Origin: Eledone cirrhosa
Lineage: Eukaryota
Direction: 5' to 3'
Assembly: GCA_964016885.1 (NCBI GenBank)
Contig: OZ024741.1
Location: 217,000,001 to 217,064,000, forward strand
DNA: 64,000 bases
This document shows, one piece after another, positions 19,817 to 60,819 of this stretch. The notes under the pieces are model-generated. The model was given only the letters and a program-made list of their open reading frames with translations, did no database searches and was not told where the DNA came from. Within the stretch, counting starts at the first letter, position 1. Every line of letters starts with the position of its first letter. A program made the position numbers and the translations under genes.

Positions 19817-19900
19817 ATATATTTATAGCTATACTGCGTCTATTGGTGTATATATATATATATAGCTGTACTGTGTCTATATATTGGTGTAGGTATATTT
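6770..19900. repeat. ~33-39-bp satellite (consensus gctatactgtgtctatatattggtgtaggtatatata), ~13 kb, roughly 360 units, with higher-order duplications
   Basis: Direct reading; the rare variant atttgtgtggatata recurs at ~9574, 11640, 14185 and 15547. Confidence 0.97.
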
Positions 19901-23256: not shown

Positions 23257-23394
23257 ATGAGAAGAAGAATATACATAGTTTTTCAATATGTTCCGTATTT
23301 ATATTTCCATCTTATATTGTTGGTGTTCTGCATTGGAGTAGATTCTAGAATTGAGGATAAAAGAATGGTAAATGACCTGGGTAAGCTTTGTCAG
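23257..23394 (+). CDS. Putative exon 1 (signal peptide) of the LPMO-like/mucin gene
   Basis: MRRRIYIVFQYVPYLYFHLILLVFCIGVDS|RIEDKRMVNDLGKLCQ: basic N-region, hydrophobic core, V-x-S cleavage-like site. Ends CAG|GTAGGT in phase 0, matching the phase-0 acceptor at 30528. An alternative donor GTAAGC at 23381 would be phase 1. Confidence 0.55.
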
Positions 23395-25699: not shown

Positions 25700-28600
25700 T
25701 GTCAATATTTTTTCGAAACTTGTACATTGCCTGGAAAGTTTTACCAATTTTATGGTGACAACTACTAAATAATTCATTTTTTTTTGTTGATTAAATTATC
25801 ATAATTTGTAATTATCTGTAGAATCTCAAGGTTACAAAGATTGCAAATTTGCGAAATATTTGAGTTCCGATAGGAAGCAGCATTCTTTAATTTCGTCCAA
25901 GAGATGGAGTATTTAATATTATTGTCCTTTAAAGACCATATTAGTTGTGAAAGTGAAGTTGAAAATTTCTCATATGGTCTATTGAAAGAGTGGCTATGAT
26001 TAAACCAACGATCCTTAAATTTAGATGAGGTGGCACCTATGTAGTTATATATATTATTATTTGTCTTAATGGTACATTTATATACTAGATTTTTGTCAAG
26101 GCAATTATTTTGTAAAGGACATTCAGACCTCTTTCTAGAATTACATTTCTTCTCAATGTTATTTACAGACGTTAAACTATTCCCATTGTTATTTAAAGAT
26201 ATTCTACTATTATTCGTGTTTAAAGTTATTCCCATTAACTAATATATTGTTATTATTTTGTTGCAAATTATAGGTTGGTTCAAATTAAGATTTTTATTAT
26301 TTATTTTTGCTATATTTTGAGCAATATTCATAGTTGTTGAATAAGAAAGTTTAACTGTGTGTCTATTTAAGATAGAGTAATATTTATGTGACCTAGGGAA
26401 GCATTATCCAAAGCTTTAAAAAAATAAATGTGCTACAGGTGTTTTAATAGCTAAAGATGCTGGCGGAGCATACTAAATTATAGATCTAGTTATTATTTTT
26501 TTTCCCCGATTTATTCATCAAGTTGTTTTTATATTCATTTTTATTATGATTACTGCGATTATAATTAATTTTATTTTTAGTATTTTTTTTATATACCCAA
26601 TATTATTGTTATATCCAGCTTTATGTAACGCTTCATTATAATATACAGCCTTACTATTAAATATGGATCTATTAGCAGACAGCCTAGATATTCGTTGTTG
26701 CACACTGTTGACTATTGCATTCTTAACACTTTTAGGATGATTAGAATAAAAACTAACATAATTTAAGTTCTCATTGACTTTATGGAAAAGATAATAAAGG
26801 CCTGAGTTCAAATTTAGAGTCACATCTAACAAATTAACTATTTTATTATTATTTTCTAGTTCTAATTTCAGGTCGTAATTTTTAAAAAATTCTATAATTA
26901 CATTCTTTACTCTATTTAATTCGCTATTGTTATGTTTTTCTACAATAAATAGTATGTCGTCCCTATATAAACCTCCGGTAATCTCCGGCAGTTTTCTATT
27001 TATCATGTTAAAATGCCCACAAGATCTGTAACTTGCGCCGAATCTGACGAACCCATAGTAATGTCAAAATTCTTCTGTCTATTCGCCCTGGTCCAAAGAT
27101 CATTATTAAAATCAATCAAAATTCGCCTTGCTGTTAATATAATATTTATCGCATCAATAGATAGGTCTGTGTGCTTATATGCATATGATAGCGCCTTATT
27201 TAATAGATCAGGAGTTATCGAGGAATAATAACTCGCTATATCCATTTGAATGAACTTATAATTATTTTTATTTTTTATATTATTGAACCAATCTATGACT
27301 TCACTAGTGCATTTCCATAGATTTAGCCGTAACCTCAATTTAAGTGTTGGTAAAATCCTATCTATTAAATTTTTACTAATTATTCCAAGATCTGATTTAG
27401 AAGGTGCTATAAGTCTAACTGGTAATTCCTCTTCGAAATTTCTTTTATGGTCTTTAAAATTTATCCGCGGTTGCTTTGGTATGAAAGGTTCAGTCTTCCG
27501 CTCTATTCCAAGATTGGTGATAATTTTAAATGCATCATTATTAATATCCAATAAATCCTCACTTGGGGCCTTTTTATAATTTTTCCTCAATTCTTTTAAA
27601 ATTAAGTTGTTATATTTTGTTCTTTCCATCCCATATAGGTTGTTCGTTTTATCTGATTTCACTAATAATTTATTTATTTTTTGCATGTCATTAATTTTTT
27701 CCTGAGGTATTCTTGGCCTCTATATGCGGTTTTTTTTAATTTAATGTTCCTTAATATATTTATAATTTCGTTTTCGAAATTAGCCAAGAGTTTGTTGTAA
27801 GGAGGATTTTTCCTAGATCTAAAAATATGATCGAAATTATGGTTGGTGTTTTTCTTATCAATATTCTCTTTATTTTCAAAGTAGAAAGCACGCCACCGCA
27901 GTCTTCTTATGAAGGAGTTGGTTTTTCCAATAAGTTGTCTCATATATTCTTCGTTTGATGGTATTGGTATATCCTTGAGAGATGTATAAATCCTGAAGAA
28001 TTCCATCATTTATTAGTAATCTATTGCAGAAGAAGCGCTCAACCTTCTGGGAGCTAAATATGACCAAATATTAATATGGTTCGTTGATTACTCAACGAAT
28101 ACAGTTTTATAATAGATTAGAAGGACTCAACAGAAAAGTTTTCCTGGAGTTTTTAATATTATTCAAAATGTTAACAAATGACAAATATTCGCATAATCAA
28201 AGTATATACTTTATTATATATATTTCAAAGCTACTGTGCTGTTTTTTTTTTCAGTACGTCCTCATCAGACAAAATATATGATTTGATATATGACATACCG
28301 CTACGGTCTTGATTATTCAATTCCCGTATTGGCAGTGATTTATTTCATCAAATCTCAACGTTTTTATACCACAAATAATAGGATAAACTTAAAGAAGAAA
28401 AGGACGTAGAGCAAATTAGAGATATAGAAAAGAAGAGGAAAGGCAATAAATAAATAAAAACAAGAAATAAATAAATAAATAAATAAACGTTGAGATTTGA
28501 TTAAATAAATCACTGCCAATACGGGAATTGAATAATCAAGACCGTAGCGGTATGTCATATATCAAATCATATATTTTGTCTGATGAGGACGTACTGAAAA

Positions 28601-28776
28601 AACAGCACAGTACCTTTTAAATACATATAATAAAGTATATATTTTGATTATGCGAATATTTTTCATTTGTTAACATTTTGAATAATAAAAACTCCAGGAA
28701 AACATAGCTGTTGAATGCTTCTAATCTATTGTAAAACTGTATTTGTTGAGTAATCAATGAACCATATTAATCTTTG

Positions 28777-28785
<9 letters not shown>
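25700..28785 (-). mobile_element. Near full-length degenerate Penelope-like element (Naiad-type RT plus GIY-YIG) with inverted pLTRs, in intron 1 of the host gene
   Basis: Frameshifted ORFs 27674-28009, 27003-27686 (KDHKRNF..PVRLIAPSKS, MDIASYYSS, ITMGSSDSAQ), 26518-27006 (GLYRDD) and 25774-26235 (C..RSECPLQNNC, VYKC, YIGAT, CNLCNLE). 28066-28345 is inverted at 28488-28780. Confidence 0.9.
28204..28279 (-). ncRNA. Minimal type I hammerhead ribozyme in the PLE pLTR; inverted copy at 28569-28640 has GAAA>TAAA
   Basis: atatattttgt-CTGATGA-ggacgtactg...cagtagcttt-GAAA-tatata-TA^-ataaagtatat; stem I is 11 bp including GU pairs. Confidence 0.8.
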
Positions 28786-30527: not shown

Positions 30528-30816
30528 GTATTTTCCAACCAAACTATTGTTACACGTAACGTAACGGTAGTATATTCAAGACATTCAAAATCATTTACAG
30601 CTTCCTTCCCAGTAAAAGACATTTATCGCTCGACTTTAAAACTTAACGTGTGTCCAAGAAAAGACAATAGTACGAGAGCAACGCAGGCATGCTTTCTCCA
30701 GAACCCAGTGAAGGACACAGATCTTACTACAACCAAATCGTTCTTAATAGCAGTATCAAAATTGCCAGTACGGATAAATTGTTCCCACTGTGTTCTGCAA
30801 TGGATTTTGAAAATAT
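30528..30816 (+). CDS. Exon 2: AA15 LPMO-like (chitin-binding type-4) domain, degenerate
   Basis: Acceptor tttcag|GTA and donor T|GTAAGT. The translation ...LKLNVCPRKDNSTRATQACFLQNPV...KLPVRINCSHCVLQW matches the remembered AA15 pattern F.LCP....ATQEC...LP....C..CVLQW. Confidence 0.75.
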
Positions 30817-31100: not shown

Positions 31101-32466
31101 GCCATAAAAATAAGCCATAAACACGCTTGCCATACCAGTAGTAACCTACAGTTACAATGTCATCAACTGGTCAAGCACAGAGATCCGTAGGCTCGATACA
31201 AAAGTTCGAAAATTCTTAACCATGCACAGAATGCATCACCCTAAAGCAGATATAGATAGAATATATCTCCCTAGGAAAGAAGGAGGACGTGGGTTAATCC
31301 AGTTAGATATTGCGTTGAAAACTGCAACAATTGGATTATCTACATATCTAAGGGAATCAGATGATTGGATGATCAAACTCGTTTTGAAACACGAAAGCAT
31401 CAAAAGATCATATTCCATTACAAAAGATGCACAAAGATACAGTAATGGACTACAAATTTCAGAAGTCCCATTTACTGCTGAAATGGAAAACACAGAAAAA
31501 GCAAAGCAGGTAAAAGTAACTGCAAAGAAAGAACTGCTACAGAAACTGGCTAAGAAATGGCAAGAAAAGCCTCTGTGTGGAAAATACCCAGAGCGAGCTA
31601 ACAATCCTGATGTTGACAAAACTTTAACCCATCAGTGGTTGGCATCCTCTGGACTGAAATCGGAGACTGAAGGACTGATTATATCGGCACAAGATCAGTG
31701 TCTGCCAACAAAAAATTACCAAGCCAACATAATAAAAAATGGGTGCAGCCCATTATGCCGTGTATGCAAAAAACAACCAGAGACCATTGACCATATAATT
31801 TCAATGTGCAGTCCTATAGCTCCAACCGAATACCTAAACAGGCATGACAGAGCTGCACAATACATACATTGGATAATGTGTAAGCATTTTGACCTGCCCT
31901 ATCAAAAGAATTGGTGGGAGCATCAACCACCTCCCATACTTGAAAAAGATCACATCTCAATCTTGTGGAACTTTAGCATCCAAACAGACCGAAAAATAGA
32001 TGCAAACAGACCTGATATAATATTGAAAGACTTTCAAAAGAGGGTATGCCTGCTAATTGATATGTCTGTTCCAATAGACAAGAATGTATCTATAAAAACA
32101 TTTGAAAAATTGAGCAAGTATAAGGACCTGGAGATAGAAATTGGAAAAATGTGGAAATTGAGAACTAAAACAATACCAGTGGTTGTAGGCGCTCTGGGAA
32201 TGATACCTAAGGGGTCTAATGATTACATATCGCAAATCCCAGGAAACCCGCGTATAGGAGAAATACAAAAGATAGTACTAATGGGAACTGCCCATATACT
32301 AAGGAAGATTCTGTCAATATAAGTACATCACAAGTCTAAACACTAAAGATGCATGTGTGAATATGTATGTTCTTTCTTGAACATGGCGGACCTTGTTGTC
32401 TCTTGAGGTCACTGGTTGTGACTTGGTGATAACTCGTATGAACATAAAGCAAGATAAATGCAACTG
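31101..32466 (+). mobile_element. 5'-truncated R4/Dong-clade non-LTR retrotransposon (RT C-terminus, CCHC finger, restriction-like endonuclease, 3' UTR)
   Basis: ORF 31222-32322: HPKADIDRIYLPRKEGGRGL, CRVC...ETIDHIISMC, RHD, NRPDII, LIDMSVP, KLSKYKDL; flanked by (AAT)n. Confidence 0.9.
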
Positions 32467-32490
32467 TAATAATAATAATAATAATAATAA

Positions 32491-32934
32491 AAGAGGACTT
32501 TAAAAAGAGGGTATGCCTGCTAATTGATATGTCCGTTCCAACAGACAAGAATGTATCTATAAAAACATTTGAAAAATTGAGCAAGTATAAGGACCTGGAG
32601 ATAGAAATTGGAAAAATGTGGAAATTGAGAACTAAAACAATACCAGTGGTTGTAGGCGCTCTGGGAATGATACCTAAGGGGTCTAATGATTACTTATCGC
32701 AAATCCCAGGAAACCCGCGTATAGGAGAAATACAAAAGATAGTACTAATGGGAACTGCCCATATACTAAGGAAGATTCTGTCAATATAAGTACATCACAA
32801 GTCTAAACACTAAAGATGCATGTGTGAGTATGTATGTTCTTTCTTGAACATGGCGGACCTTGTTGTCTCTTGAGGTCACTGGTTGTGACTTGGTGATAAC
32901 TCGTATGAACATAAAGCAAGATAAATGCAACTGT
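32491..32934 (+). mobile_element. Second, shorter 5'-truncated copy of the same R4/Dong element, in tandem
   Basis: Near-identical to 32025-32466, separated by and followed by (AAT)n. Confidence 0.9.
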
Positions 32935-32949
32935 AATAATAATAATAAT

Positions 32950-33329
32950 AATTGTTTCTACTTTTGGCACAAGGCCAGCAATTACCAAGTACATTACTGG
33001 TACTTTATTTTATCGACTTCATAAGGATGAAAGGTAAAGTTAACCTCGACGGGATTTGAACTCAGACCGTAAAGGGACGTAACTATGCTAGAAAGCATGG
33101 CGTCCAACCCTCTACCGATACTGCCAATAATAATAATAATTGTTTCTACTTTTGGCACAAGGCCAGCAATTATCCCAGTGCATTACTGGTACTTTATTTT
33201 ATCGACCCCGTAAGGATGAAAGGCAAAGTTAACCTCGGCGGGATTTGAACTCAGATCACAAAGGGCCGTAACTCTGTACTGCAAAGCATGGCGTCCGACC
33301 CTCAACCGATACTGCCAAACCACCGCCCC
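32950..33329 (-). mobile_element. Two tandem SINE copies (32950-33126, 33138-33329) in (AAT)n
   Basis: Reverse complements of the SINE at 2719. Confidence 0.85.
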
Positions 33330-33377: not shown

Positions 33378-33932
33378 TTTCATTTATTGACCACAAGGGT
33401 CGACATATAGGGGACAATACAAAATACAGGGATAGTGGGGGTTTACATATACAACGTGTAAACAATATAAGTAACAATAACAAAATAATAATAATGATAA
33501 TAATAACATTAATAATAACAATTTCATAATAAGTAATAATAATAATGATTTCTTTATTAACCACAAGGGTTTACATAAAGTAGACATTAAGGACAGTACA
33601 GGACAATACAGGGCGGTACAAATGGGAATTTCTGCGTGTAAAAAAAACAAGAAACAGAGGATGTAATAATAGAACAATGAAAAAATTCCCCAATAGGGGG
33701 AAGACTTCCGAGGGACATTGGTGGAGAAAGCCCATTAAAAAGCCACAGTGACCCTGACCACCAGGGCAAGTGCCCTCTCCCAGTTTTCCACCTTTAATTT
33801 ACAGACACATACTCAGAGTAAGCCCATTCACTCGGGCCATTCTTGCCTCTCTCACCCATCTTTCAACAAAATGCTGGGAAGAGAGCATTTCCCTTTCTAC
33901 CCTGATTTTCCTTTTCAAATTAAATTTGAATA
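33378..33932 (-). mobile_element. 3' ends of Tx1/L1-like LINE(s)
   Basis: Minus translation FKFNLKRKIRVEREMLSSQHFVERWVREARMARVNGLTLSMCL*, followed by a UTR ending ccccttgtggttaataaag-like + (ATT)n; a shorter related end lies at 33378-33470. Confidence 0.55.
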
Positions 33933-33980
33933 AGTAATAATAATAATATTAACGCTTTCGGTTATTTTGATCTTCTACAG

Positions 33981-36900
33981 CTGAATTTTCTCCTAATGTC
34001 ATCCCTAAAGAATATGTCGGTTGTATTGACCTCGCCAAGACAGAGATATTAAACGAATTGGAACCCTTTGAAGGGATACAAAGCCCCGTCAGAAGAAATC
34101 AACAACCCTCGAACATGCAACAACCTTTACCCTATTATTATTATCCTTATTATTATCATCACATTGGTTGCTATGGTATCTACAATTATAACCACGTGCC
34201 CGGGATTAATTACTGGTGCGCAGTAAATTGTATACGTGGTTACTGCCCATACTCCCATTGCTCCTGTAACATTCCCTGCCAGGTGAAACCATCCTATGTC
34301 ATAATTCCCGGCATGATAGAGTGGTGTTACCTGAACTGTCACGCTGGGAACTGTCCAGAAAGCCACTGTAAATGTAACATTGACGAACAGAGTACCCCAT
34401 CTGACCAATCAGATCCCACAAATCCAGCACCAGCATCACAACCAAGTCCTCAACCACCAGCTCAAACGCCGACACAAGCACCACCACCACCACCACCTAC
34501 ACCGGCTCCAGCAGCGACACCACCACCATCACCAGCATCACCTCAACCATCAGGCTGTACCGTAAAGGATGACTATTCAGAAATACCTGGAATGCAAGAT
34601 TGGTGTGTCCTCAATTGTGGGTTGGGATTCTGTCCGGAAACTCATTGTGCGAGCTGCTCCGATATAGGGGAAACCACAGCGGGCCCACAAACAACACCAA
34701 CAACACCAACAACACCTACCACACCAACAACACCTACCACACCAACAACACCAACAACACCTACCACACCAACAACACCAACAACACAAACAACGCCTAC
34801 CACACCTACCACACCAACAACACCTACCACACCAACAACACCTACCACACCAATAACACCAACAACACCTACCACACCAACAACACCAACAACACCTGCC
34901 ACACCAACAACACCAACAACACCAACAACACCTACCACACCAACAACACCAACAACACCAACAACAACACCAACAACAACACCAACAACAACACCAACTA
35001 CAACACCAACTACAACGCCAACAACAACGCCAACAACAACACCAACAACAACACCAACAACAACACCAACAACAACACCAACAACAACACCAACAACAAC
35101 ACCAACTACAACACCAACTACAACACCAACTACAACACCAACAACAACACCAACAACAACACCAACTACAACACCAACTACAACACCAACAACAACACCA
35201 ACAACAACACCAACTACAACACCAACTACAACACCAACAACAACACCAACAACAACACCAACTACAACACCAACAACTACACCAACAACAACACCAACAA
35301 CAACAGCAACTACAACACCAACAACAACACCAACAACAACACCAACAACAACACCAACTACAACACCAACAACAACAGCAACTACAACACCAGCAACAAC
35401 ACCGACTACAACACCAACAACAACACCAACAACAACACCAACAACAACACCAACAACAACACCAACAACAACACCAACAACAACACCAACTACAACACCA
35501 ACAACAACACCAACAACAACACCAACTACAACACCAACAACAACACCAACAACAACACCAACAACAACACCAACAACAACACCAACAACAACACCAACAA
35601 CAACACCAACAACAACACCAACTACAACACCAACTACAACACCAACAACAACACCAACAACAACACCAACAACAACACCAACAACACCAACAACAACACC
35701 AACTACCACACCAACAACAACACCAACTACAACACCAACAACAACACCAACTACAACACCAACTACAACACCAACAACAACACCAACAACACCAACAACA
35801 ACACCAACAACAACACCAACTACGACACCAACAACAACACCAACAACAACACCAACTACAACACCAACAACAACACCAACAACAACACCTACAACAACAC
35901 CAACAACAACACCTACAACAACACCAACCACCACACCAACAACAACACCAACTACAACACCAACAACACCAACAACAACACCAACTACAACACCAACAAC
36001 AACACCAACAACAACACCAACTACAACACCAACAACAACACCAACAACAACACTAACTACAACACCAACAACACCAACAACAACACCAACTACAACACCA
36101 ACTACAACACCAACAACACCAACAACAACACCAACTACAACACCAACAACAACACCAACAACACCAGCAACAACAACACCAACAACAACACCAACTACAA
36201 CACCAACAACACCAACAACAACACCAACTACAACACCAACAACAACACCAACAACAACACCAACAACAACACCAACAACAACAACAACACCAACAACAAC
36301 ACCAACAACAACACCAACAACAACACCAACTACAACACCAACAACTACACCAACAACAACACGAACAACAACACCAACTACAACACCAGCAACAACACCG
36401 ACGACAACACCAACAACAACACCAACAACAACACCAACTACAACACCAACTACAACACCAACAACAACACCAACAACAACACCAACTACAATACCAACTA
36501 CAACACCAACTACAACACCAACAACAACACCAACAACAGCACCAACAACAACACCAACAACAACACCAACAACAACACCAACAACAACACCAACAACACC
36601 AACTACAACACCTACTACAACACCAACTACAACACCAACTACAACACCAACAAAAACACCAACAACAACACCAACAACAACACCAACAACAACACCAACA
36701 ACAACACCAACAACAACACCAACTACCACACCAACAACAACACCAACAACAACACCGACAACAACACCAACAACAACACCAACAGCAACACCAACTACAA
36801 CACCAACTACAACACCAACAACAACACCAACAACAACACCAACTACAACACCAACAACAACACCAACAACACCAACAACAACACCAACAACAACACCAAC

Positions 36901-39900
36901 TACGACACCAACAACAACACCAACAACACCAACAACAACACCTACAACAACACCAACCACCACACCAACAACAACACCAACTACAACACCAACTACAACA
37001 CCAACTACAACACCAACAACAACACCAACAACAGCACCAACAACAACACCAACAACAACACCAACAACAACACCAACAACAACACCAACAACACCAACAA
37101 CAACACCTACAACAACACCAACCACCACACCAACAACAACACCAACTACAACACCAACTACAACAACACCAACAACAACACCACCAACAACACCAACTAC
37201 AACACCAACAACAACACCAACAACAACACCAACAACAACACCAACAACAACACCAACAACAACACCAACTACAACACCAACAACACCAACAACAACACCA
37301 ACTACAACACCAACAACAACACCAACAACAACACCAACTACAACACCAACAACAACACCAACAACAACACCAACTACAACACCAACAACAACACCAACAA
37401 CAACACCAACTACAACACCAACTACAACACCAACAACAACACCAACAACAACACCAACCCCCACATCAACTACAACACCTACAACAACACCAACCACCAC
37501 ACCAACAACAACACCAACTACAACACCAACTACAACACCAACAACAACACCAACAACAACACCAACTACAACACCAACAACAACACCAGCTACAACACCA
37601 ACAACAACACCAACTACAACACCAACTACAACACCAACAACAACACCAACAACAACACCAACTACAACACCAACAACAACACCAACTACAACACCAACAA
37701 CAACACCAAATACAACACCAACAACAACACCAACAACACTAACAACAACACCAACAACAACACCAACTACGACACCAACAACAACACCAACAACAACACC
37801 AACAACAACACCAACTACGACACCAACAACAACACCAACAACAACACCAACAACAACACCTACAACAACACCAACCACCACACCAACAACAACACCAACA
37901 ACACCAACAACAACACCAACTACAACACCAACAACAACACCAACAACAACACCAACAACAACACCAACAACAACACCAACTACAACACCAACAACACCAA
38001 CAACAACACCAACTACAACACCAACTACAACACCAACAACACCAACAACAACACCAACTACAACACCAACAACAACACCAACTACAACACCAACAACAAC
38101 ACCAACAACAACACCAACTACAACACCAACAACAACACCAACTACAACACCAACAACAACACCAACAACAACACCAACAACATCACCAACAACACCAACA
38201 ACAACACCAACTACAACACCAACTACAACACCAACAACAACACCAACAACAACACCAACAACAACACCAACTACAACACCAGCAACAACACCGACTACAA
38301 CACCAACAACAACGCCAACAACAACACCAACACCAACAACACCAACAACAACACCAACTACAACACCAACAACAACACCTACAACAACACCAACAACAAC
38401 ACCAACAACAACACCAACTACAACACCAACAACACCAACAACAACACCAACAACAACACCAACAACAACACCAACAACAACACCAACTACATCACCAACA
38501 ACACCAACTACATCACCAACAACACCAACAACAACACCAACTACAACACCAACAACAACACCAACTACAACACCAACAACAACACCAACTACAACACCAA
38601 CAACAACGCCAACAACAACACCAACACCAACAACAACACCAACAACAACACCAACTACAACACCAACAACAACACCTACAACAACACCAACAACAACACC
38701 AACAACAACACCAACTACAACACCAACAACAACACCAACTACAACACCAACAACAACACCAACTACAACACCAACTACAACACCAACAACAACAACAACA
38801 CCAACTACAACACCAACTACAACACCAACAACAACACCAACAACAACACCAACTACAACACCAACAACAACACCAACTACAACACCAACTACAACACCAA
38901 CTACAACACCGACTACAACACCAACAACAACACCAACAACAACACCAACTACAACAACACCAACTACAACACCAACTACAACACCAACAACAACACCAAC
39001 TACAACACCAACTACAACACCAACTACAGCACCAACAACAACACCAACTACAACACCAACTACAACACCAACAACAACACCAACTACAACACCAACAACA
39101 ACACCAACTACAGCACCAACAACAACACCAACTACAACACCAACAACAACACCAACAACAACACCAACAACAACACCAACTACAACACCAACAACAACAC
39201 CAACAACAACGCCAACAACAACACCAACAACAACACCAACAACAACACCAACTACAACACCAACAACAACACCTACAACAACACCAACAACAACACCAAC
39301 AACAACACCAACACCAACAACAACACCAACAACAACACCAACAACAACACCAACTACAACACCAACAACAACACCAACTACAACACCAACAACAACACCA
39401 ACTACAACACCAACAACAACACCAACTACAACACCAACAACAACACCAACTACAACACCAACAACAACACCAACACCAACTACAACACCAACTACAACAC
39501 CGACTACAACACCAACAACAACACCAACAACAACACCAACTACAACACCAACAACAACACCAACTACAACACCAACAACAACACCAACAACAACACCAAC
39601 TACAACACCAACTACAACACCAACTACAACACCAACTACAACACCAACAACAACACCAACAACAACACCAACTACAACACCAACAACAACACCAACTACA
39701 ACACCAACTACAACACCAACTACAACACCGACTACAACACCAACAACAACACCAACAACAACACCAACTACAACACCAACAACAACACCAACAACAACAC
39801 CAACTACAACACCAACAACAACACCAACTACAACACCAACTACAACACCGACTACAACACCAACTACAACACCAACAACAACACCAACAACAACACCAAC

Positions 39901-40948
39901 TACAACACCAACAACAACACCAACTACAACACCAACTACAACACCAACTACAACACCAACTACAACACCAACAACAACACCAACAACAACACCAACTACA
40001 ACACCAACAACAACACCAACTACAACACCAACTACAACACCAACTACAACACCGACTACAACACCAACAACAACACCAACAACAACACCAACTACAACAC
40101 CAACAACAACACCAACTACAACACCAACTACAACACCAACAACAACACCAACTACAACACCAACTACAACACCAACAACAACACCAACAACAACACCAAC
40201 TACAACACCAACAACAACACCAACTACAACACCAACTACAACACCAACTACAACACCGACTACAACACCAACAACAACACCAACAACAACACCAACTACA
40301 ACACCAACAACAACACCAACAACAACACCAACTACAACACCAACAACAACACCAACTACAACACCAACTACAACACCAACAACAACACCAACTACAACAC
40401 CAACTACAACACCAACAACAACACCAACAACAACACCAACTACAACACCAACAACAACACCAACTACAACACCAACTACAACACCAACTACAACACCGAC
40501 TACAACACCAACAACAACACCAACAACAACACCAACTACAACACCAACAACAACACCAACTACAACACCAACTACAACACCAACAACAACACCAACTACA
40601 ACACCAACTACAACACCAACTACAACACCGACTACAACACCAACAACAACACCAACAACAACACCAACTACAACACCAACAACAACACCAACAACAACAC
40701 CAACTACAACACCAACTACAACACCAACAACAACACCAACAACAACACCAACTACAACACCAACACCAACAACAACAAATTCGAACCCTTTGAAGGGACA
40801 CAAAGCCCCGTCAGAAGAAATCAACAACCCTCGAACATGCAACAACCTTTGCCCTATTATTATTATCCTTATTATTATCATCACATTGGTTGCTATGGTA
40901 TCTACAATTATAACCACGTGCCCGGGATTAATTACTGGTGCGCAGTAA
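33981..40948 (+). CDS. Exon 3: end of the LPMO-like domain, Tyr-rich linker, three Cys modules (WCxxNCxxGxCPxxHC), ~2000-aa (TTTP)n mucin tract, hydrophobic C-terminus
   Basis: Acceptor cttctacag|CT completes the phase-1 codon and is in frame with ORF 34058-40948. PKEYVGCIDL resembles AA15 QExFxGCADI. Repeat variation is mostly at third positions (ACA/ACT/ACG/ACC, CCA/CCT/CCG) in the Thr/Pro frame. Confidence 0.8.
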
Positions 40949-41260
40949 ATTGTATACGTGGTTACTGCCCATACTCCCATTGCTCCTGTAACATTCCCTG
41001 CCAGGTGAAACCATCCTATGTCATAATTCCCGGCATGATAGAGTGGTGTTACCTGAACTGTCACGCTGGGAACTGTCCAGAAAGCCACTGTAAATGTAAC
41101 ATTGACGAACAGAGTTCCCCATCTGACCAATCAGATCCCACAAATCCAACACCAGCATCACAACCAAGTCCTTAACCACCTCCTCAAACGCCGACACAGG
41201 CACCACCACCTCCTCAAACGCCGACACAGGCACCACCACCACCACCACGCTGCCTACACC
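40778..41260 (+). repeat. Recent duplicate of 34056-~34505 (Tyr-rich segment and two Cys modules), shifted in frame, with CAA>TAA at 41173
   Basis: Offset is 6722 bp (not a multiple of 3); about six substitutions visible in the first ~400 bp. Confidence 0.92.
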
Positions 41261-44121
41261 AGTTGCAGCAGAGACACCATCACCACCACCACCGCTACCG
41301 CCTACACCAGTTGCAGCAGAGACACCACCACCACCACCACTACCACCAGCACCACCGCCGCCGCCACCTACACAAGTTGCAGCAGAGACACCACCGCCAC
41401 CACCGCCACCTACACCTACACAAGTTGCAACAGAGACACCACCACCACCGCTACCGCCACCTACACCAGTTGCAGCAGACACACCACCACCACCACCACC
41501 GCCACCGCCACCTACACCAGTTGCAGCAGAGACACCACAACCGTCACAACCACCACCACTACCGCCACCTACACCAGTTGCAGCAGAGACACCACCCCCA
41601 CCACCACCGCCACCTACACCAGTTGCAGCAGAGACACCACCACCACCACCACCGCCACCGCCACCTACACCAGTTGCAGCAGAGACACCACCACCGCAGC
41701 CACCACAACCACCATCACCACCACCACCGCCACCTACACCAGTTGCAGCAGAGACACCACCACCGCAGCCATCACAACCACCATCACCACCGCCACCTAC
41801 ACCAGTTGCAGCAGAGACACCACCACCGCAGCTGTCACAACCACCATCACCAGCGCCACCTACACCAGTTGCAGCAGAGACACCACCACCGCAGCCATCA
41901 CAACCACCATCACCACCGCCACCTACACCAGTTGCAGCAGAGACACCACCACCGCAGCTGTCACAACCACCATCACCAGCGCCACCTACACCAGTTGCAG
42001 CAGAGACACCACCACCGCAGCCATCACAACCACCATCACCACCGCCACCTACACCAGTTGCAGCAGAGACACCACCACCGCAGCCATCACAACCACCATC
42101 ACCACCGCAACCTACACCAGTTGCAGCAGAGACACCACCACCGCAGCTGTCACAACCACCATCACCAGCGCCACCTACACCAGTTGCAGCAGAGACACCA
42201 CCACCACAGCCGTCACAATCACCATCACCACCGCCACCGCCACCTACACCAGTTGCAGCAGAGACACCACCACCGCAGCCATCACAACCACCATCACCAC
42301 CTCCACCTACACCAGTTGCAGCAGAGACACCACCACCGCAGCCGTCACAACCACCATCACCATCACCACCTCCACCTACACCAGTTGCAGCAGAGACACC
42401 ACCACCACGGCCATCACAACCACCACCACCACCGCCACCTACACCAGTTGCAGCAGAGACACCACCACCGCAGCCATCACAACCACCACCACCACCGCCA
42501 CCTACACCAGTTGCAGCAGAGACACCACCACCACGGCCATCACAACCACCACCACCACCGCCACCTACACCATTGCAGCAGAGACACCACCACCGCAGCC
42601 ATCACAACCACCATCACCACCACCACCGCCACCTACACCAGTTGCAGCAGAGACACCACCACCACGGCCATCACAACCACCACCACCACCGCCACCTACA
42701 CCAGTTGCAGCAGAGACACCACCACCGCAGCCATCACAACCACCATCACCACCGCCACCGCCACCTACACCAGTTGCAGCAGAGACACCACCACCGCAGC
42801 CATCACGACCACCATCACCACCACCACCGCCGCCACAAACGTCACGACCACCATCACCACCACCACCACCACCACCACCGCCACCTACACCAGTTGCAGC
42901 AGAGACACCACCACCGCAGCCATCACAACCACCATCACCACCACCACCGCCACCTACACCAGTTGCAGCAGAGACACCACCACCACGGCCATCACGACCA
43001 CCATCACCACCACCACCGCCGCCACAAACGTCACGACCACCATCACCACCACCACCACCACCACCACCGCCACCTACACCAGTTGCAGCAGAGACACCAC
43101 CACCACAGCTGTCACAACCACCATCACCACCGCCACCTACACCAGTTGTAGCAGAGACACCACCACCGCAGCCGTCACAACCACCATCACCACCGCCACC
43201 TACACCAGTTGCAGCAGAGACACCACCACCACGGCCATCACAACCACCACCACCACCGCCACCTACACCAGTTGTAGCAGAGACACCACCACCGCAGCCG
43301 TCACAACCACCATCACCACCGCCACCTACACCAGTTGCAGCAGAGACACCACCACCGCAGCCATCACAACCACCATCACCACCACCACCGCCACCTACAC
43401 CAGTTGCAGCAGAGACACCACCACCGCAGCCATCACAACCACCATCACCACCACCACCGCCACCTACACCAGTTGCAGCAGAGACACCACCACCGCAGCC
43501 GTCACAACCACCATCACCACCACCACCGCCACCTACACCAGTTGCAGCAGAGACACCACCACCGCAGCCGTCACAACCACCATCACCACCACCACCGCCA
43601 CCTACACCAGTTGCAGCAGAGACACCACCACCGCAGCCGTCACAACCACCATCACCACCAGCCCCGTCATAAAACCAACAATAACTCCAACATCAACAAC
43701 ATCACCATCACCACCAACAACACCTACAATTCCAACCACAACTCCAACAACAACATCAACAACAAAACCTACCGCAACAACAACAACAACAACACCAACT
43801 ACAACGCCAATAACAACAACAACAACACCATCTACAACAACAACAACAATAACACCAACAACAACAATAACACCAACAAGTCCATCTACAACAACAACAA
43901 CAATAACAACAACAATAAAACCAACACCATCTGCAACAACAACAACAACACCATCTGTAACAACAACAACAATAACAAGAACACCGTCAATAACAACAAC
44001 AATAACAAGAACACCGTCAATAACAACAACAACAGCAACATCACCCTCTATACCAGACAATCCAACATTATCTACAATCCCCACCCCAACCACATTTAAA
44101 GACCAAAAATCACGAAATTGA
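41250..44121 (+). pseudogene. Pro-rich tandem repeat (PTPVAAETPPPQPSQPPSPPP, ~60-66 bp) and Thr-rich tail; frameshifted continuation of the duplicated exon
   Basis: Expanded from the PTPAPAATPPPSP motif at 34490-34550; the Pro frame switches between ORFs 41102 and 41263 at indels. Confidence 0.55.
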
Positions 44122-44325
44122 ACTTTATACACTCCAGAGACGTTACATATCCCAGAGACGTTGCACACCTGAAGACGTTATACACTCCAGAGACGTTACA
44201 TATTCCAGAGACGTTACATATCCCAGAGACGTTACACACCTGAAGACGTTATACACGCCAGAGACGTTACATATCCCAGAGACGTTACACACCTGAAGAC
44301 GTTATACACGCCAGAGACGCTGCAT
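44122..44325 (+). repeat. 18/19-bp minisatellite (ccagagacgttacatatc); candidate polyA signal AATAAA at 44503
   Basis: About 11 units read directly. Confidence 0.8.
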
Positions 44326-44644
44326 GCGACGGGGACGTCGCTGGCTACGACGATGCCCTTGTGGTCAGCCTTCTTGTGAAACACAGCGTAATTGCAGAGT
44401 TAGCAAACGACACGTATTTGTGCGGCACCCTCACCAGTGCTTCAGAGAGGCATTACGTCACCGTGTTTGACGGCATCGCAGCGAAATTCCATGTCTGTTA
44501 TCAATAAATCCCGGGGGTGGGGGAATATGTAAGACATGTACCTAGATACGCTCCTCCAGCTGACAGGAAAATATTACCATCAATACGAACGTTAATATAA
44601 AAACCAGCTTGGCAGTGGGCATTACGACATTATTAATATCAACA

Positions 44645-44952
44645 GGGCGGTGGATTGGCAGTATCGGTAGAGAGTCGGAAACCATGCTTTGAAGCATAGA
44701 GTTACGTCCCTTTATGATCTGAGTTCAAATCCCGCCGAGGTTAACTTTGCCTTTCATCCTTACGGGGTCGATAAAATAAAGTACCAGTAATACTCTGGGT
44801 AAGTGCATTACTGGTACTTTATTTTATCAACCCCGTAAGGATGAAAGGCAAAGTTAACCTCGGCTGGATTTGAACTCAGAATGGCAAGGGCCTTAACTCT
44901 ATGCGTCAAAGCATGGCGTCCGACCATCTACCGATACTGCCAATCCTCCGCC
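44645..44952. mobile_element. Tail-to-tail inverted SINE pair (44645-44801 +, 44803-44952 -)
   Basis: Two copies of the main SINE family abutting in opposite orientation. Confidence 0.85.
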
Positions 44953-45955: not shown

Positions 45956-46810
45956 CGAGGGAAAAGTGGTAAGGAACCAGGTGGACCATAACGCACCAAA
46001 GTACTCAATACTTAGAGTAGTAGAGTGGGTAATAGGAGTAAGTAAGACCCCGACGGCTGAGCTCAAGCCGTTTCGACGGCTAATTCTGTACAGAATTAGC
46101 CGTCGAAACGGCTTGAGCTCAGCCGTCGGGGTCTTACTTACTCCTATATATATATATATATATATATATGGAAAAAAATGAAACGAAATTTCATTTCTCA
46201 CTCTTAGTACGGCTGATACTTAAATATAAGTATGTACATATATGTATACAGACGTACAGTAGTATGTATATATATATACATACATGCACACATATATATA
46301 TGTACGTATGGATTTACCGAACAATTATTATAATGCTCGGTTTGTTTGTAAACAAACATCCCGAATTAAGCCGTACAGTGTTTAGCAACCATCGTTGCCC
46401 TTTTGTTCAACACTGACAAAGGAACGATGTTCAAGCTTATTAGCTATCGTCAGCACCGTATACCTTCCTGCCAGATGATTGAACGTCTGAAAGTATATAC
46501 TTTCCCTATGCATATTAACGGCTGAGCAGCCTAATTTGCATATCGAGTAAGTTAATCGGCCGGGCGCACCGAAAACGATAAATGGAAAAAATGAAACGAA
46601 ATTTCATTTCTCACTCTTAGTACGGCTGTTACTTAAATATAAGTATGTATACGTACATACATATATGTATACAGATGTACAGTAGTATGTATATATATAC
46701 ATACATGCACACATATATATATGTGCGTAACAAACCGAGCATTATAATAAATGTTCGGTAAATCCATACGCACGTATATATATGTGTGCATGTATGTATA
46801 TATATACATA
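45955..46810. mobile_element. Palindromic repeat (46032-46147) followed by hammerhead-bearing repeat copy 3 and a partial inverted copy
   Basis: Same families as 21205 and 20520; the HHR at 46424-46459 (-) has lost stem III and the cleavage site. Confidence 0.75.
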
Positions 46811-48715: not shown

Positions 48716-49318
48716 TATTAGAAAACAAAATTTGGTGAATGCGTTTAAAAAGCTGACATTTTGTTGTAAAATTTTCTATTATACATATTTTGTATGCCAA
48801 AAATATTTAGTCTTGACTTAGATTTATACAGATTCTCTCGACTTAGATAATCCAGTGTGACAGTGAATGAACCTAATGTTTATAAAATCAGTTCAGTTCT
48901 AAGATATTAAATATAGTTGATAAGCTCTAGGCAGGACAGGATTTATCGGGAGGACTGTGGGGGCTGAAACCTCTCCGAGCAGGGACCCACCTTTATTCAC
49001 GACTTATATTTAATATCTCGACTTATATAGTCTAAAAAACATAATGTGCGAGTATAAATAGGTGAATATGTTTAGAAAACTGACAATTTGTTGTGACATA
49101 TTTAATGTTATTGTTTAACTTTAGGTCAGACACATTTACACACCTGCCTACAAATGTGTTCTATACTTGAACATAACACCTGATGAATTTCATATTCAAA
49201 CCTATTCTATATACCTGGCTTTTCAATGATTATATAATCAGCTGTAACATCTAAAATAAAATAAAAAGTTTTAGGATGAAAATAAAAATGTTTTAGAAAA
49301 TATTTAGATACAAAAATA

Positions 49319-49390
49319 GATTCCAGCGAGTTTCCAACTCACGACCTTCTGCGTGTTAAGCAGATGTGATAACCACTGCACCATGGAACC
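49319..49390 (-). pseudogene. tRNA-Val(AAC) pseudogene
   Basis: Cloverleaf with T-loop GTTGGAA and acceptor- and D-arm substitutions. Confidence 0.7.
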
Positions 49391-49696
49391 ACAAGAGTGT
49401 TGCAGCACACCTATTGCTTTATGAAACACTTTTACATTTGTTTCAATTTAGCTAAAAATTTGTAAATTTAGAAACAGTTGATTAACGATATAAATACTAT
49501 GATATGACGGGTTACCTGTCTTTAGCTTGTTAGGTTGGTAATGTTGTATAAGACAGGTCAGCCCCTTCCATCATAGGTTATATATACAGCACTGGATATT
49601 GAAATCCTAGTCTAGATTAACAGAAGAAATACCTGAGCCCCTAACTAACACGATACTACACGAATTAAAAAAATATAACTGAAAACAAAAGATAAA

Positions 49697-49768
49697 GGTT
49701 CCAGCGAGTTTCGAACTCGCGACCTTTTGCGTGTGAAGCAGACGTGATAACCACTACACCATGGAACC
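49697..49768 (-). tRNA. tRNA-Val(CAC), one anticodon-stem mismatch
   Basis: GGTTCCATGGTGTAGTGGTTATCACGTCTGCTTCACACGCAAAAGGTCGCGAGTTCGAAACTCGCTGGAACC. Confidence 0.75.
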
Positions 49769-50317
49769 ACATGTAGACAGTATGATGAATAACTTTCTAT
49801 TATACATATTTTGTATATCTAAAATATTTAGTCTTGACTTCGATTCATACAGATGTTCTCGACTTAGAAAATCTAGTGTGATAATTTATAAACCTGAATA
49901 TGTTCAGCTCCAAGATATTAAATATAGTTATTCAGCTCTTAGCAGGGCAGGATTTATCGGGAGGAATGTGCGGGCTAAAACTTCTCCGAACAGGAACACC
50001 TCTATATTCTAAACTTACATTAATAAAGACGCCCTCAGTCTAAAAAACATAATGTGCCAGTATAAATAGGTGAATGTGTTTAGAAAACTAACATTTTGTT
50101 GTGACATATTTAATATTGTTGTTTAACAGACACATTTAAACACCAGCATACAAATGTGTTCTATACTTGAACATAATATCTGATGAATTTCATATTCAAA
50201 CCTAATCTATATAACTGGCTTTTCAATAATGGTATAATCAGCTGTAACATCTGAAATAAAGGGAAAAAAATAAGGGTAAAATAAATATGTTTCTAAAAAT
50301 ATTTAGATACAAAAATA

Positions 50318-50389
50318 GGTTCCAGCGAGTTTCAAACGCACGACCTTCTACGTGTTAAGCAGACGTGATAAACACTACACCATGAAACC
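50318..50389 (-). pseudogene. tRNA-Val(AAC) pseudogene
   Basis: Multiple substitutions; 999 bp from the 49319 copy. Confidence 0.7.
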
Positions 50390-50694
50390 ACATGATTATT
50401 CTGTCACACGTATTGCCTTATCAACACTTTTACATTTGTTTCAATTTAGCTAAACATGAGTAAATTTAGAAACAGTTGATTAACGATATAAATACCATGA
50501 TATGACGGTTACCTGTCTTTAGCTTGTTAGGTTGGTAGATTTGTATAACACAGGTCAGTCAACTTCCATCATAGGTAATATATACAGCACTGGGTATTGA
50601 AATCAGCGTCTTGCTAAGCGGAAGAAATACCTGAGCCTCTAACTAACACGGCACTACACGAATTAAAAATATATAACTGAAAACAAAAGATAAA

Positions 50695-50766
50695 GGCTCC
50701 AGCGAGTTTCGAACTCGCGACCTTCTGCGTGTGAAGCAGCCGTGATAACCACTACACCATGGAACC
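50695..50766 (-). tRNA. tRNA-Val(CAC), two substitutions
   Basis: 998 bp from the 49697 copy; A and B boxes intact. Confidence 0.7.
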
Positions 50767-51284
50767 ACATGTAGCCGACATGATGAATAACTTTCTATTA
50801 TACATATTTTGTATATCTAAAATATTTAGTCTTGACTTCGATTCATACAGATGTTCTCGACTTAGAAAATCTAGTGTGATAGTTTATAAACCTGAATATG
50901 TTCAGCTCCAAGATATTAAATATAGTTGTTCAGCTCTTAGCAGGGCAGGTTTTATCGGGAGGACTGTGGGGTAAAACCTCTCCGAACAGGGACCCCTCTT
51001 TATCCTCGACTTATATTTATACAGAAGCTCTCAGTCTGAAAAAGATAATGTGCCAGTACAAGTAGTTTAATGTGTCTAGTAAACTGACATTATGTTGTGA
51101 AATATTTAATGTTGTTGTTTAACTTTAGATCAGATACATTTACACACCTGTCTACAAATGTGTTCTACACTTAAACATAAAAAAGAGTAATGAAAGTTAT
51201 CAGAAGAATTTCATTTTCAAACATATTCTGTAAATATTGTCTTTCAATAAATAAAAAAAACATCAGCAATAGCATCTGAAATAA

Positions 51285-51497
51285 TGGTTTCTTAAATAGC
51301 CACAAAGCCAGCAATTGAGGGAGAGGAGGAAGTCGATTAAATCGATCCCAGTCCGTGACTGGTACTTTATTTTATCGACTCCATCAGGATGAAAAGCAAA
51401 GTTAACCTCGGCGGGATTTGAACTCAGATCATAAAGGGCCGTAACTCTATGCTTAAAAGCATAGCGTTCGATCCTCTACCGATACTGCCAATCCACC
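51285..51497 (-). mobile_element. SINE inserted in the tRNA array spacer with a 13-bp TSD (gcatctgaaataa)
   Basis: TSD copies at 51272 and 51498. Confidence 0.85.
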
Positions 51498-51570
51498 GCA
51501 TCTGAAATAACAGAATAAATTAAAGATGCAAATATAAAAAGTTCCTAAAAAATATTTAGTTACAAAAATA

Positions 51571-52073
51571 GGTTCCAGCGAGTTTCGAACTGACGACATT
51601 CTGCCTGTTCAGCAGATGTGATAACCACTACACCATGGAACTACCCGCTTATTTCGTCAAAGCAATTCCTTTATCAAACATATTGACATTTGTTTCAATT
51701 TAACGTATTTTGTGTCTTAAAGTCACCCTCCGTCTAGAAAAGATAATGTACCAGTATAAATTTTTAGGAAGGTCATGGGAGCAGAGTCATCAAACAACCA
51801 TTCCACAGGGTCCTGTCAGAACCAACTATCTCCAATTGATCTGCCTTAGGGAAGCAAGACCAACACAGATCAGGGATGAGCAAACCTATTCTATGTACCT
51901 GGCTTTTCAATAATTATATAATCAACAGTAACATCTAAAATAAAATAAAAATTTAAGGATGAAAATAAATATGTTTCTAAAAGTATTTAACTACATAATT
52001 ACGTTAGAGCGAGTTTCGAACTCACCACCTTCTGCGTGTTAAGCAGATGTGATAACCACTACACCATGAAACC
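51571..52073 (-). pseudogene. Two degraded tRNA-Val copies (51571-51642, 52002-52073)
   Basis: Recognisable bodies with stem mismatches. Confidence 0.65.
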
Positions 52074-52226
52074 ACATGGTTACTGCGAAAGATGAGTAAA
52101 TTTAGGACACTTTTACACAAAATAGAACAGATTTGTAGGGATATCTGTGTAAACGTGACCAACATAGTGGCATACCAGATTTAGACCTTGTGAGGCCCGT
52201 GGCAGTTGGGGTTTAGTCAGCCTCTA

Positions 52227-52332
<106 letters not shown>

Positions 52333-52486
52333 ATCCTGGGTTCAATTGGGAGTAACCACAGTAAGTAACGTACTCAATACATAGCAGAGACTTAATAGAA
52401 CAAAAGATTTGAATTTCTTCAAATAAAAGAAAAAAAATTAAGGATGAAAATAAAAATATTTCTAAAGTTATTTAAAAAATGATTTA

Positions 52487-52558
52487 GGTTCCAGCGAGTT
52501 TCGAACTCACGACCTTCTGCGTGTTAAGCAGATGTGATAACCACTACACCATGGAACC
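52487..52558 (-). tRNA. tRNA-Val(AAC)
   Basis: Complete cloverleaf, anticodon loop TT-AAC-AC. Confidence 0.8.
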
Positions 52559-52843
52559 ACATGAATACTGCGCAACACGTATTGCCTTATCAAACTTTTA
52601 CATTTGTTTCAATTTAGCTAAAGATGAATAAATGTAGAAACAGTTGAATAACGATCTAAATACTATGATATGAAGAGTCACCTATCTTCTAAGGTTGGTT
52701 GTGTTGTATAACACAGGTCAGCCCCCTTCCATCATGTTGTATAACACAGGTCAGCCCCCTTCCATACAGCAATGGAAATCATCGTCTAGATAAACGGAGG
52801 AACACGACACTACACGAATTTAAAAAAAGAAAAAAAACCCAAA

Positions 52844-52915
52844 GGTTCCAGCGAGTTTCGAACTCGCGACCTTCTGCGTGTGAAGCAGACGTGATAACCA
52901 CTACACCATGGAACC
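52844..52915 (-). tRNA. tRNA-Val(CAC), intact
   Basis: Perfect stems, loop TT-CAC-AC, downstream T-run on the coding strand. Confidence 0.85.
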
Positions 52916-53699
52916 ACATGTAGACCAAACGATAAATAACTTTCTATTATACCTATTTTCTGTCTAAAATATTTATTCGTGACTATTTATACAGATTCTC
53001 TCGACTTAGAAAACCTAGTGAGACAGTAAATAAACCTGAATATGTTTATAAAGCTCAGTTTAATTCTAATATATTTTATGTTGTTGTTGGCCTTTGGCAA
53101 TGCAGGATTTAGCTGGAGGACTGTGGTTTCTAAAACCCGGGGACTTCTCTGCTAACAAGTCCCCTTCTTCGAGCAGTACTCCACTTCAAACAGAGCTCCA
53201 GCTACCTTTAAGAACGGAACCCTGCTCATAACCGTAATTTTATCTTTTGGAGTGTATGTTTTTCAAAATGTAATTGATGTTGTTTTGTGCAAAGTCATCA
53301 GTGTTCTTTTACTTTAGTGACACCAGGTGGCGAAAGTAGGGAAGCTGCTGTATATGGTGTATAACGTATGTGTATGAGTGTAATCCAAACAATTTTGTAT
53401 GAGATAATACAATATGTTTTGATCCTGAGTTCGGATCCTACTGGAGCATCTGTTAGTATCTAATTTTTTTTTTTTTTATATTTTTATTTCCATCTTTCAT
53501 TTCTTCGTGTTGTTTTTATAGATTGAAAGACACGTTTTTTTTCGAGTAGGATAGAACACAACAGTAGGCCGGACACTTTTACACAAAATAGAACACATTT
53601 GTAGGGATATCTGTGTAAATGTGACCGACATCGGGGCAGGACCAGATTTAGTCCTTGTGAGGCCCGTGGCAGTCGGGGTTTAGTCAGCGTTTAACACAC

Positions 53700-53713
53700 T
53701 CACACATACATAC

Positions 53714-53801
<88 letters not shown>

Positions 53802-53813
53802 GTGTGTGCGCGC

Positions 53814-53888
<75 letters not shown>

Positions 53889-54648
53889 TGTGTGTGTGCG
53901 AGTACATCCTGGGTTCAATTCGGAGTAACCACAGTAAGTGAGGTACTCAATACATAGCAGACACTTAATAGAAGAAAAGATTTGAATTTCTTCAAACCCA
54001 TCAATCCACTAAAAGGTCATGGGTCAAAGAATTGTTCCTACTTTGGGCACAAGGCCAGCAATTATATCAGTGTATTACTGGTACTTTATTTTCTCGACTC
54101 CGTAAGGATGAAAGGCAAAGTTAACCTCGGCGGGATTTGAACTCAGTCCGTAAAGGGCCAGGTCAAATAATGGAGGTAGCAAAAGAATATTCATTGTGTA
54201 CACACACACACACACACACACACACACTCATACACACTCACACACACTCGCACATTCACACTCACACACACACACACACAGACACACTCACACACACTCA
54301 CACACTCACACTCACACACACAGACACACTCACTCACACACTTACACATACATACTCACACACTCACACATTCATACACTCACACTCACACACACATACA
54401 CATACATTCACTCACCCACTTACATATACACACTCACACACACTCACACACACTCACACACACACTCACACACTCTGACTCACAGACACACATACACATA
54501 CATAGTCATACACACACTAGCATATAACCCTACATACACACATAAATATATATACAAACATCAAGCACTATAACCACACATACACACGCAAATATATATA
54601 CACATTAAGCACTATAATTGATAAACAATAGCTACACATATATATATA
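53700..54648. repeat. ~0.95-kb block ((GT)n, unique sequence, SINE fragment, CA-rich) duplicated at 60700-61654; partial copy at 52106-52420
   Basis: Near-identical catcctgggttcaattcggagtaaccacagtaagtgagg...caagcactataaccacac. Confidence 0.85.
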
Positions 54649-55109
54649 CATTCATACCCATGCGTACAATATACACCATATACAGCAGCTCACCCTACAT
54701 TCGCCACCTGGTGTCGCTAAACTAAATGAACTCTGATAAAATAGCACAAAATAAAACATTCTCTCTAAAAGATGAAATTATGATTATGATCAGGGCTTTT
54801 GTTCTTAAAAAGTAACAGGAGCTCTGTGTGAAGGAGGGGTGTTCCTGTTCGAGGCAGGGGCCCTGTTTGAAGAGAAGGCCCAGGTCTTTCACACCCACAG
54901 TCCTCCCCATAAATCATGCTCTACCTAAGACTGAACAACTACATTAAATATATTAGAATTAAACTGAGCTTTATGAACACATTCAGCTTTATTTACTGTC
55001 ACACTAGGTTTTCTAAGTCGAGAGAATCTGTATAAATCTAATCAAGACAAAATATTTTAGACATACAATCTGGGTATAATAGAACATTATTTGTGGAATA
55101 TTTCTATAT

Positions 55110-55181
55110 GGTTCCATGGTGTAGTGGTTATCACGTCTGCTTAACACGCAGAAGGTCGCGAGTTCGAAACTCGCTGGAACC
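55110..55181 (+). tRNA. tRNA-Val(AAC), intact
   Basis: GGTTCCATGGTGTAGTGGTTATCACGTCTGCTTAACACGCAGAAGGTCGCGAGTTCGAAACTCGCTGGAACC followed by an oligo-T Pol III terminator at ~55190. Confidence 0.88.

Positions 55182-60717: not shown

Positions 60718-60819
<102 letters not shown>

Follow-up and report, generated by a model that had tools for sequence, protein, structure and literature searches.

An apparently out-of-frame internal duplication in an AA15-like mucin-type gene of Eledone cirrhosa and its probably accidental hydrophobic tail

Introduction

A long open reading frame in the genome of Eledone cirrhosa (33971-40948) stays in one Thr/Pro register over 2029 codons before switching to a 56-residue tail and a stop. 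The tail is read from a second copy of DNA that also lies near the 5' end of the same frame, where it is translated differently. A preliminary description had proposed that this arrangement converted a secreted mucin into one held at the membrane by a TM or GPI anchor. The locus raises the question of whether the change of frame is real or a flaw of the assembly and, if it is real, whether the hydrophobic tail is a new membrane anchor or an accident of reading a low-complexity linker out of frame. Precedents can be cited on either side. In euAP3, a frameshifted C-terminus was fixed with few further changes (PMC1513400). Frameshifted short repeats commonly give hydrophobic, TM-like runs (PMC12871928), and off-frame reading of U-rich codons yields hydrophobic C-termini, most of which are neutral or degraded (10.1101/2022.07.20.500724; PMC12871928).

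Here we analyzed 64,000 nucleotides of contig OZ024741.1 (assembly GCA_964016885.1, positions 217,000,001 to 217,064,000), referred to below as the window, which contains introns, microsatellites, satellites and transposons. Its dispersed short repeats resemble octopod ones. All coordinates are positions in the window, and features lie on the forward strand unless stated otherwise. The relatives mentioned by handle (P0002 and the like) belong to a set of 82 proteins recovered by a full-library protein search.

Results and discussion

The gene upstream of the tail can be modelled as three exons. Exon 1 (23257..23394), predicted from a scan for ATG and donor sites, runs from an ATG through a signal-peptide-like hydrophobic stretch to a phase-0 donor (GTAGGT at 23395). 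The hydrophobic stretch was judged by eye and the exon model rests on alignment, in which the final residues of exon 1 pair with P0037 and P0022 directly before exon 2. Exon 2 (30528..30816), located by tblastn of relatives, encodes an AA15/LPMO_10-like beta-sandwich core that lacks the second copper histidine. The unique 5' part of exon 3 (33981..34690) is open across its phase-1 splice to exon 2 and encodes the end of the LPMO-like domain, a Tyr-rich linker, six-cysteine modules and a Pro linker; it is followed by the mucin-type tract (34691..40777), in which 2004 of the 2029 codons specify Thr or Pro and no register slip occurs. Both introns have GT-AG borders and keep the phase, and joining the three exons yields an uninterrupted protein of 2464 residues. 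The gene is intact up to 40777, and the proposal that a secreted-type protein lies upstream of the tail was supported, with a predicted signal-peptide exon at its start. In the second intron, the 3' end of a non-LTR retrotransposon (31114-32952) has a weak zf-RVT match, and its final 467 bp are duplicated in tandem at 98.9% identity.

No Pfam family matched any exon of the gene, and the assignment of the head comes from profile and structure comparisons. Exon 2 aligned with 14 AA15-like proteins in hhalign at 97.3% (E 2e-11), and the head model (pLDDT 84), built from an alignment that included AA15 relatives, had 5msz (TdAA15A) as its top Foldseek row with a weak E of 0.079. AA15 LPMOs are defined by a His1 exposed after signal cleavage and by a second histidine, according to PMC5823890. 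With TdAA15A and the LPMO_10 family (PF03067), as described there, the predicted protein shares a putative signal peptide, the beta-sandwich and the CP..C and C..C.LQW cysteines, whereas it lacks His1, the second histidine, the N-terminal subdomain and the NxWG loop. No HG motif follows the signal stretch or occurs in any frame of intron 1, and the column aligned with the second brace histidine (His91 of TdAA15A, in the TANH motif) holds Tyr or Arg. P0037, P0022 and P0003 also lack both histidines, which points to a non-catalytic subgroup and not to fresh decay, and by these comparisons the head is probably a non-catalytic binding domain.

The six-cysteine modules lie at 34169-34267, 34277-34375 and 34556-34657. 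They follow the motif C-x14-WC-x3-C-x4-CP-x3-C-x-C and stand in tandem with Thr/Pro linkers between them, as they do in the AA15 and GH18 proteins P0002, P0010, P0022 and P0037. All 18 module cysteines are kept. A model of the first two modules (34169-34375) gave a strand, a helix and a strand (pLDDT 86.8); the module matched no Pfam family, and the pair matched no PDB entry by sequence or by fold. Among 52 scanned relatives, modules were joined to LPMO_10 in 10 and to a GH18 chitinase in 2, and these fusion partners suggest that the module binds chitin. Most relatives with a recognisable module (50/76) end within 15 residues of one. P0002 has the order LPMO-like end, three modules, Thr/Ser tract and two modules, of which the last are old, diverged copies.

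A 2000-residue tract is absent from all the relatives, and so is a membrane tail. Word-index searches, which covered the longer proteins, returned no close orthologue, and an atlas search gave a single, uninformative row at 0.76. The end of P0037 (residues 361-461) is rich in Asn, Thr and Tyr and resembles a Thr/Pro tract read in a wrong frame, which suggests that off-frame ends or mis-predictions recur in the family. In the open literature (main texts, a limited set of terms) we found no paper on the gene, on the histidine-less group or on the cysteine module, and the accessible part of PMC1945033 does not describe the module. The AA15-like proteins without histidines but with six-cysteine modules may merit a study of their own.

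Copy 1 of the duplicated segment (34052..34491), which comprises the Tyr linker, two cysteine modules and the start of the Pro linker, matches copy 2 (40774..41213) without gaps at an offset of 6722, with 11 differences in 440 nt; a gapped match continues to about 34526/41248. The duplication had been described as lying 6722 bp downstream, a distance that is not a multiple of 3 (6722 mod 3 = 2), and both points hold for the ungapped extent given here. The term exon duplication does not fit, since the join is exon-internal: the duplicated piece has its 5' edge 71 nt into exon 3 and brings along no splice sites of its own. Alignment of P0002 and P0010 in one frame makes the ancestral frame of the Tyr linker in copy 1 certain. 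In copy 2, which is identical to copy 1 over 40852-41115, the two cysteine modules are intact in the frame that is not read. This ancestral frame of copy 2 has gained a TAA (41173..41175) where copy 1 has CAA (34451), as had been noted, and the use of one DNA segment in two frames of a single open reading frame is true of the sequence as assembled.

The duplication joint (40774..40779) consists of an AAC common to the tract and to copy 1, followed by a three-A run, and is where the -1 shift occurs; a further A within 40777-40779 would restore the ancestral frame. The shared AAC stands at codon position 3 in the tract (ACA-ACA) and at position 1 in copy 1, so that any join made through it is bound to shift the frame by one base. 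The microhomology would thus account for both the place and the sign of the shift. A single haplotype fits either history of the locus: copy 2 may be the newer part, or the 3' part may go back to an older gene end or to a paralogue in tandem.

A simple-rule splice-site scan found no GT anywhere in the Thr/Pro tract and no acceptor at copy 2, and the lack of GT means that the joint cannot be bypassed by splicing from inside the tract. Under the same rule, the single acceptor-like site in 33900-44600 is the exon 3 acceptor at 33981, and the weak donors in exon 3 have no acceptor partner. We also considered off-frame reading of copy 1 through an alternative acceptor and rejected it: a TAA at 34050-34052 blocks that frame, and no acceptor-like site follows it.

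We regard the frameshift at the joint as probably real, on the evidence of the register, the satellites and the lesions. The shift falls exactly at the breakpoint and in the register predicted by the AAC microhomology, which supports a real lesion. The competing explanation is that the assembly has lost one A from four at 40777. The gene would then encode a secreted protein of 2540 residues that ends at the TAA at 41173, 23 residues past two more modules, so that its stalk would be flanked on either side by binding modules, and the remainder would be decayed 3' UTR. Such an error would need a single base to open the frame to 41173, would explain why the copy-2 modules are intact, and would give the repaired protein the domain order of P0002; homopolymer length miscounts are, moreover, the main error of HiFi reads (PMC7545148). 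Against it, there is no reason for an error to fall on the breakpoint itself, and the end modules of P0002 are old and diverged, which leaves the parallel only suggestive.

Repeats and long reading frames in the window provide a comparison for single-base errors. Within the 49-bp satellite, full-length runs were scored for A4 in 43/43 cases and for C3 in 49/49, and two units of 53 are one base short, both in the same context. The 37-bp satellite showed no even-length interval among 346, that is, no single-base change. The 467-bp tandem copy in intron 2 aligns gap-free over 457 nt, with 5 mismatches, and 74 runs of at least 4 bases lie in frames that stay open (the upstream gene and two transposon ORFs). 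About 22 kb of unpolishable repeats therefore contain no comparable error, save the two 48-nt units of like context, and we consider an assembly error unlikely.

The repeats and other elements of the window are features in their own right. The two satellites occupy 3962-19898, with about 54 copies of the 49-bp unit, and the 37-bp satellite extends over 13 kb with units that vary by two-base steps only. Back-to-back inverted dispersed repeats occur at 28063-28778, 44646-44952 and 46040-46145, with a near-perfect palindrome at about 46095. A cluster of tRNA-Val genes or copies with AAC and CAC anticodons spans 49318-55182, where ARAGORN and Rfam each predict 8, with one site differing each way; the copies sit in duplicated blocks of ~80-86% identity. 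A Helitron-like ORF pair lies on the reverse strand (57087-60332), with a PIF1 helicase match (E 9e-62); one of its frames runs for 1082 codons and is interrupted only by a stop at 58845. An 860-bp block (53799-54617 / 60721-61582) is found on either side of the Helitron-like element at 86% identity.

Downstream of copy 2, a Pro-rich array (41253..43660) of 36 measured units has grown from the Pro linker, and -1 slips are found at its start (~41248), within one unit (42572) and at its end (~43660). Unit lengths are multiples of 3 in 35/36 cases, the exception being 68 nt. The array carries many amino-acid-changing variants and, by eye, no stop, a combination that is uninformative on selection. 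A Thr-rich stretch of 152 codons with a stop follows (43663..44121), with an AATAAA at 44503, and is probably the old C-terminus. Just past the old stop lies an 18-bp minisatellite (44134-44319), and a 48-codon ATG frame begins at 44324.

The ~3.3 kb behind copy 2 thus holds a TAA and three more -1 slips. The 3342 nt that follow the joint carry four lesions, against none in the 7224 nt that precede it (p 0.01 if uniform, in a post hoc test on tracts that are homogenised repeats). Two of the downstream lesions, a C-to-T change and the loss of a lone G, are not homopolymer events; loss of one base from a short run could account for three of the four slips, among them the joint, and all four are -1. 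The sequence beyond the TAA at 41173 is far more diverged than the unchanged cysteine modules of copy 2, a pattern that may mean that constraint ended at 41173 and that gene conversion would also explain.

The off-frame tail itself (40778..40948) comprises 56 residues and a stop at 40946-40948. Its best 19-residue window (40856-40912) has a mean Kyte-Doolittle hydropathy of 3.29, which confirms the hydrophobic helix of about 20 residues that had been described. The helix does not lie directly before the stop as had been stated: it ends 11 residues before the tail does, and those 11 residues are uncharged. Read off-frame, copy 1 already encodes the same hydrophobic peptide, residue for residue. 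TAT is used for each of the first eight Tyr residues in the linker (8/8); off-frame these codons become ATT or ATC and hence isoleucine, and the other wrong frame of the linker is also hydrophobic (1.65).

We estimated how often such a tail arises by chance by synonymous re-coding of the copy-1 peptide (20000 trials, A/T third-position weight 0.6-0.7, the gene's own being 0.66). The off-frame segment reached a hydropathy of at least 1.6 in 29-30% of trials and of at least 3.28 in 0.3-1.2%, or in 0.2% and 0.04% under two other weightings. Chance would thus often produce a membrane-like tail, but seldom one of this strength. As a baseline, among 57 off-frame peptides of at least 19 residues, 5 reached 1.6 and 1 reached 3.2, copy 1 included. 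We tentatively ascribe the rare strength of the helix to a (TAT)4 run that would predate the join. Off-frame hydrophobic tails of similar U-rich origin are described in 10.1101/2022.07.20.500724 and PMC12871928; here, in contrast, the chain has a predicted signal peptide and would already be in the translocon, so that it might escape capture by cytosolic BAG6.

The reading that we favour, with a probability of about 0.6, is a real out-of-frame join with an accidental hydrophobic tail. Repair or unequal crossover would have joined the tract to exon-3 DNA through the AAC, and the different codon positions of that AAC in the tract and in copy 1 would have put the join off by one. As assembled, the Tyr-rich linker with its TAT runs is then read as an Ile-rich sequence, with a stop at 40948 and a product of 2464 residues, and the 3.2 kb behind the stop would have become untranslated and gained a nonsense change and three slips. 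A cleavable signal peptide would bring the chain into the ER during synthesis, with the head on a long glycosylated stalk; at 0.25 nm per residue, a stalk of ~2000 residues would reach some 500 nm. In an expressed allele the helix would be likely to stop transfer, as is general behaviour at Sec61, so that the mucin would be tethered as a type I protein with an inner tail of 11 residues; alternatively, the product may be cleared by quality control. The stop lies in the last predicted exon, yet a 3.5-kb 3' UTR could lower the mRNA level. Weighing against the accidental reading are the low frequency of a helix this strong under synonymous re-coding, the P0002-like layout usual in the family that one more A would give, the slips readable as short-run losses, the two short satellite units and the unchanged cysteine modules of copy 2.

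The tail could plausibly act as a stop-transfer helix and type I anchor if expressed, with a sum of -5.8 kcal/mol on a translocon scale for the hydrophobic helix. No basic residues stand on its cytosolic side, which offers the 11 uncharged residues only. As assembled, and if the three-A reading is right, the Thr/Pro tract and the helix near the C-terminus are the features of a type I mucin. In membrane mucins of the MUC1/MUC4 type, a long Thr/Pro stalk likewise leads to one helix close to the C-terminus; the predicted protein differs from them in that SEA and EGF domains, a signalling tail and basic stop-transfer residues are all missing. No homology to them was found, and the likeness is one of analogy only.

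The claim of a TM or GPI anchor thus stands in part: type I attachment is plausible as assembled, whereas a GPI layout fails the rule check. GPI-anchored proteins have an omega site of C, D, G, N or S ~20-30 residues from the C-terminus and small residues from omega-1 to omega+2 (PMC2571997). The tail has none of these five residues 20-30 residues from its end and no spacer: residues 26-36 are P, I, L and T only, and the candidates at 16-25 would leave 31-40 residues, none with A, G or S at omega+2. No charge occurs in the final 30 residues, most of which are hydrophobic, and the omega+10 rule would set omega at N17, which is followed by P and R.

That the join was kept for tethering the mucin, with downstream decay after fixation, seems improbable to us. 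The upstream gene is intact, the tail frame is open for 56 codons and contains an unusually strong helix, the downstream DNA has decayed, and euAP3 offers a precedent. The comparison of the copies, however, shows no sign of selection on the tail. Three of the four differences within it alter amino acids and none lies in the helix, while the identity of the copies continues past the tail stop with 0 changes in 168 nt; a lack of changes both in the helix and behind the stop means that conservation does not track the new frame. The helix is followed by no basic residues, and the GPI layout is absent. A hydrophobic C-terminus occurred in one of the 82 relatives, many of which are fragments, and belongs to a chitinase cut mid-domain; a credible C-terminal anchor was found in 0/82. 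Exact look-up of the tail peptide and of two other peptides of the window gave no match. In euAP3 (PMC1513400), a one-base shift likewise swaps the C-terminus, but there the new end is conserved across a clade and evolves as coding sequence, whereas here the view is of one haplotype and the joint is an intragenic duplication. The earlier claim of a functional conversion to an anchored mucin is therefore not upheld: the tail was latent in copy 1, is unchanged, derives from TAT codons and has no anchored counterpart among the relatives.

A dead gene copy or null allele, in which neither end is made, would be in keeping with five lesions in the 3' part, the loss of the catalytic histidines and the 3.5-kb 3' UTR that would follow the stop if the AATAAA at 44503 is used. 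We find this still harder to credit, since the 7224 nt upstream contain no stop or slip, the splice sites are canonical and in phase, and the cysteines of the modules are complete. The histidine loss is common to P0037, P0022 and P0003 and thus a trait of the subfamily, and variants in the tract lean synonymous (35 vs 18 distinct contexts).

Programmed -1 frameshifting would yield two products, a tethered one from ribosomes that do not shift and a secreted one, terminated at 41173, from those that do. An X_XXY_YYZ-type heptamer (40786..40792; form as in PMC5009743) lies in the tail frame 8 nt past the joint, one of 2 in the CDS in the right frame. A -1 slip there would return translation to the ancestral frame, and the process would account for the intact modules of copy 2. 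Yet a heptamer arose by chance in 16% of shuffles, and this one was inherited unchanged from copy 1. A G in the last position, as here, makes a poor shifter. The fold test, placed 5-9 nt past the heptamer and with pseudoknots outside the model, gave no stable downstream structure (-5.4 kcal/mol, z +0.66; 145/200 shuffles fold as well), and we hold programmed frameshifting to be very improbable indeed.

Conclusion

We conclude that a real out-of-frame join with an accidental hydrophobic tail is the probable explanation of this locus. If the tail is an accident, or the shift an error, the locus illustrates that a linker rich in TAT yields a membrane-like tail whichever wrong frame is read, and that the presence of such a tail does not show function. 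A fixed and expressed allele, in which the Tyr-rich segment is used in both frames and a secreted, chitin-binding-like protein has become a surface-tethered mucin with a possible -1 secreted isoform, is doubtful. If it were true, the locus would show a membrane anchor at the moment of its birth, next to an ancestral frame that can still be read. Were such an allele fixed and used, the gene would show that a single step can create an anchor when a low-complexity linker is read in its latent off-frame, donor and product adjoining in the same gene.
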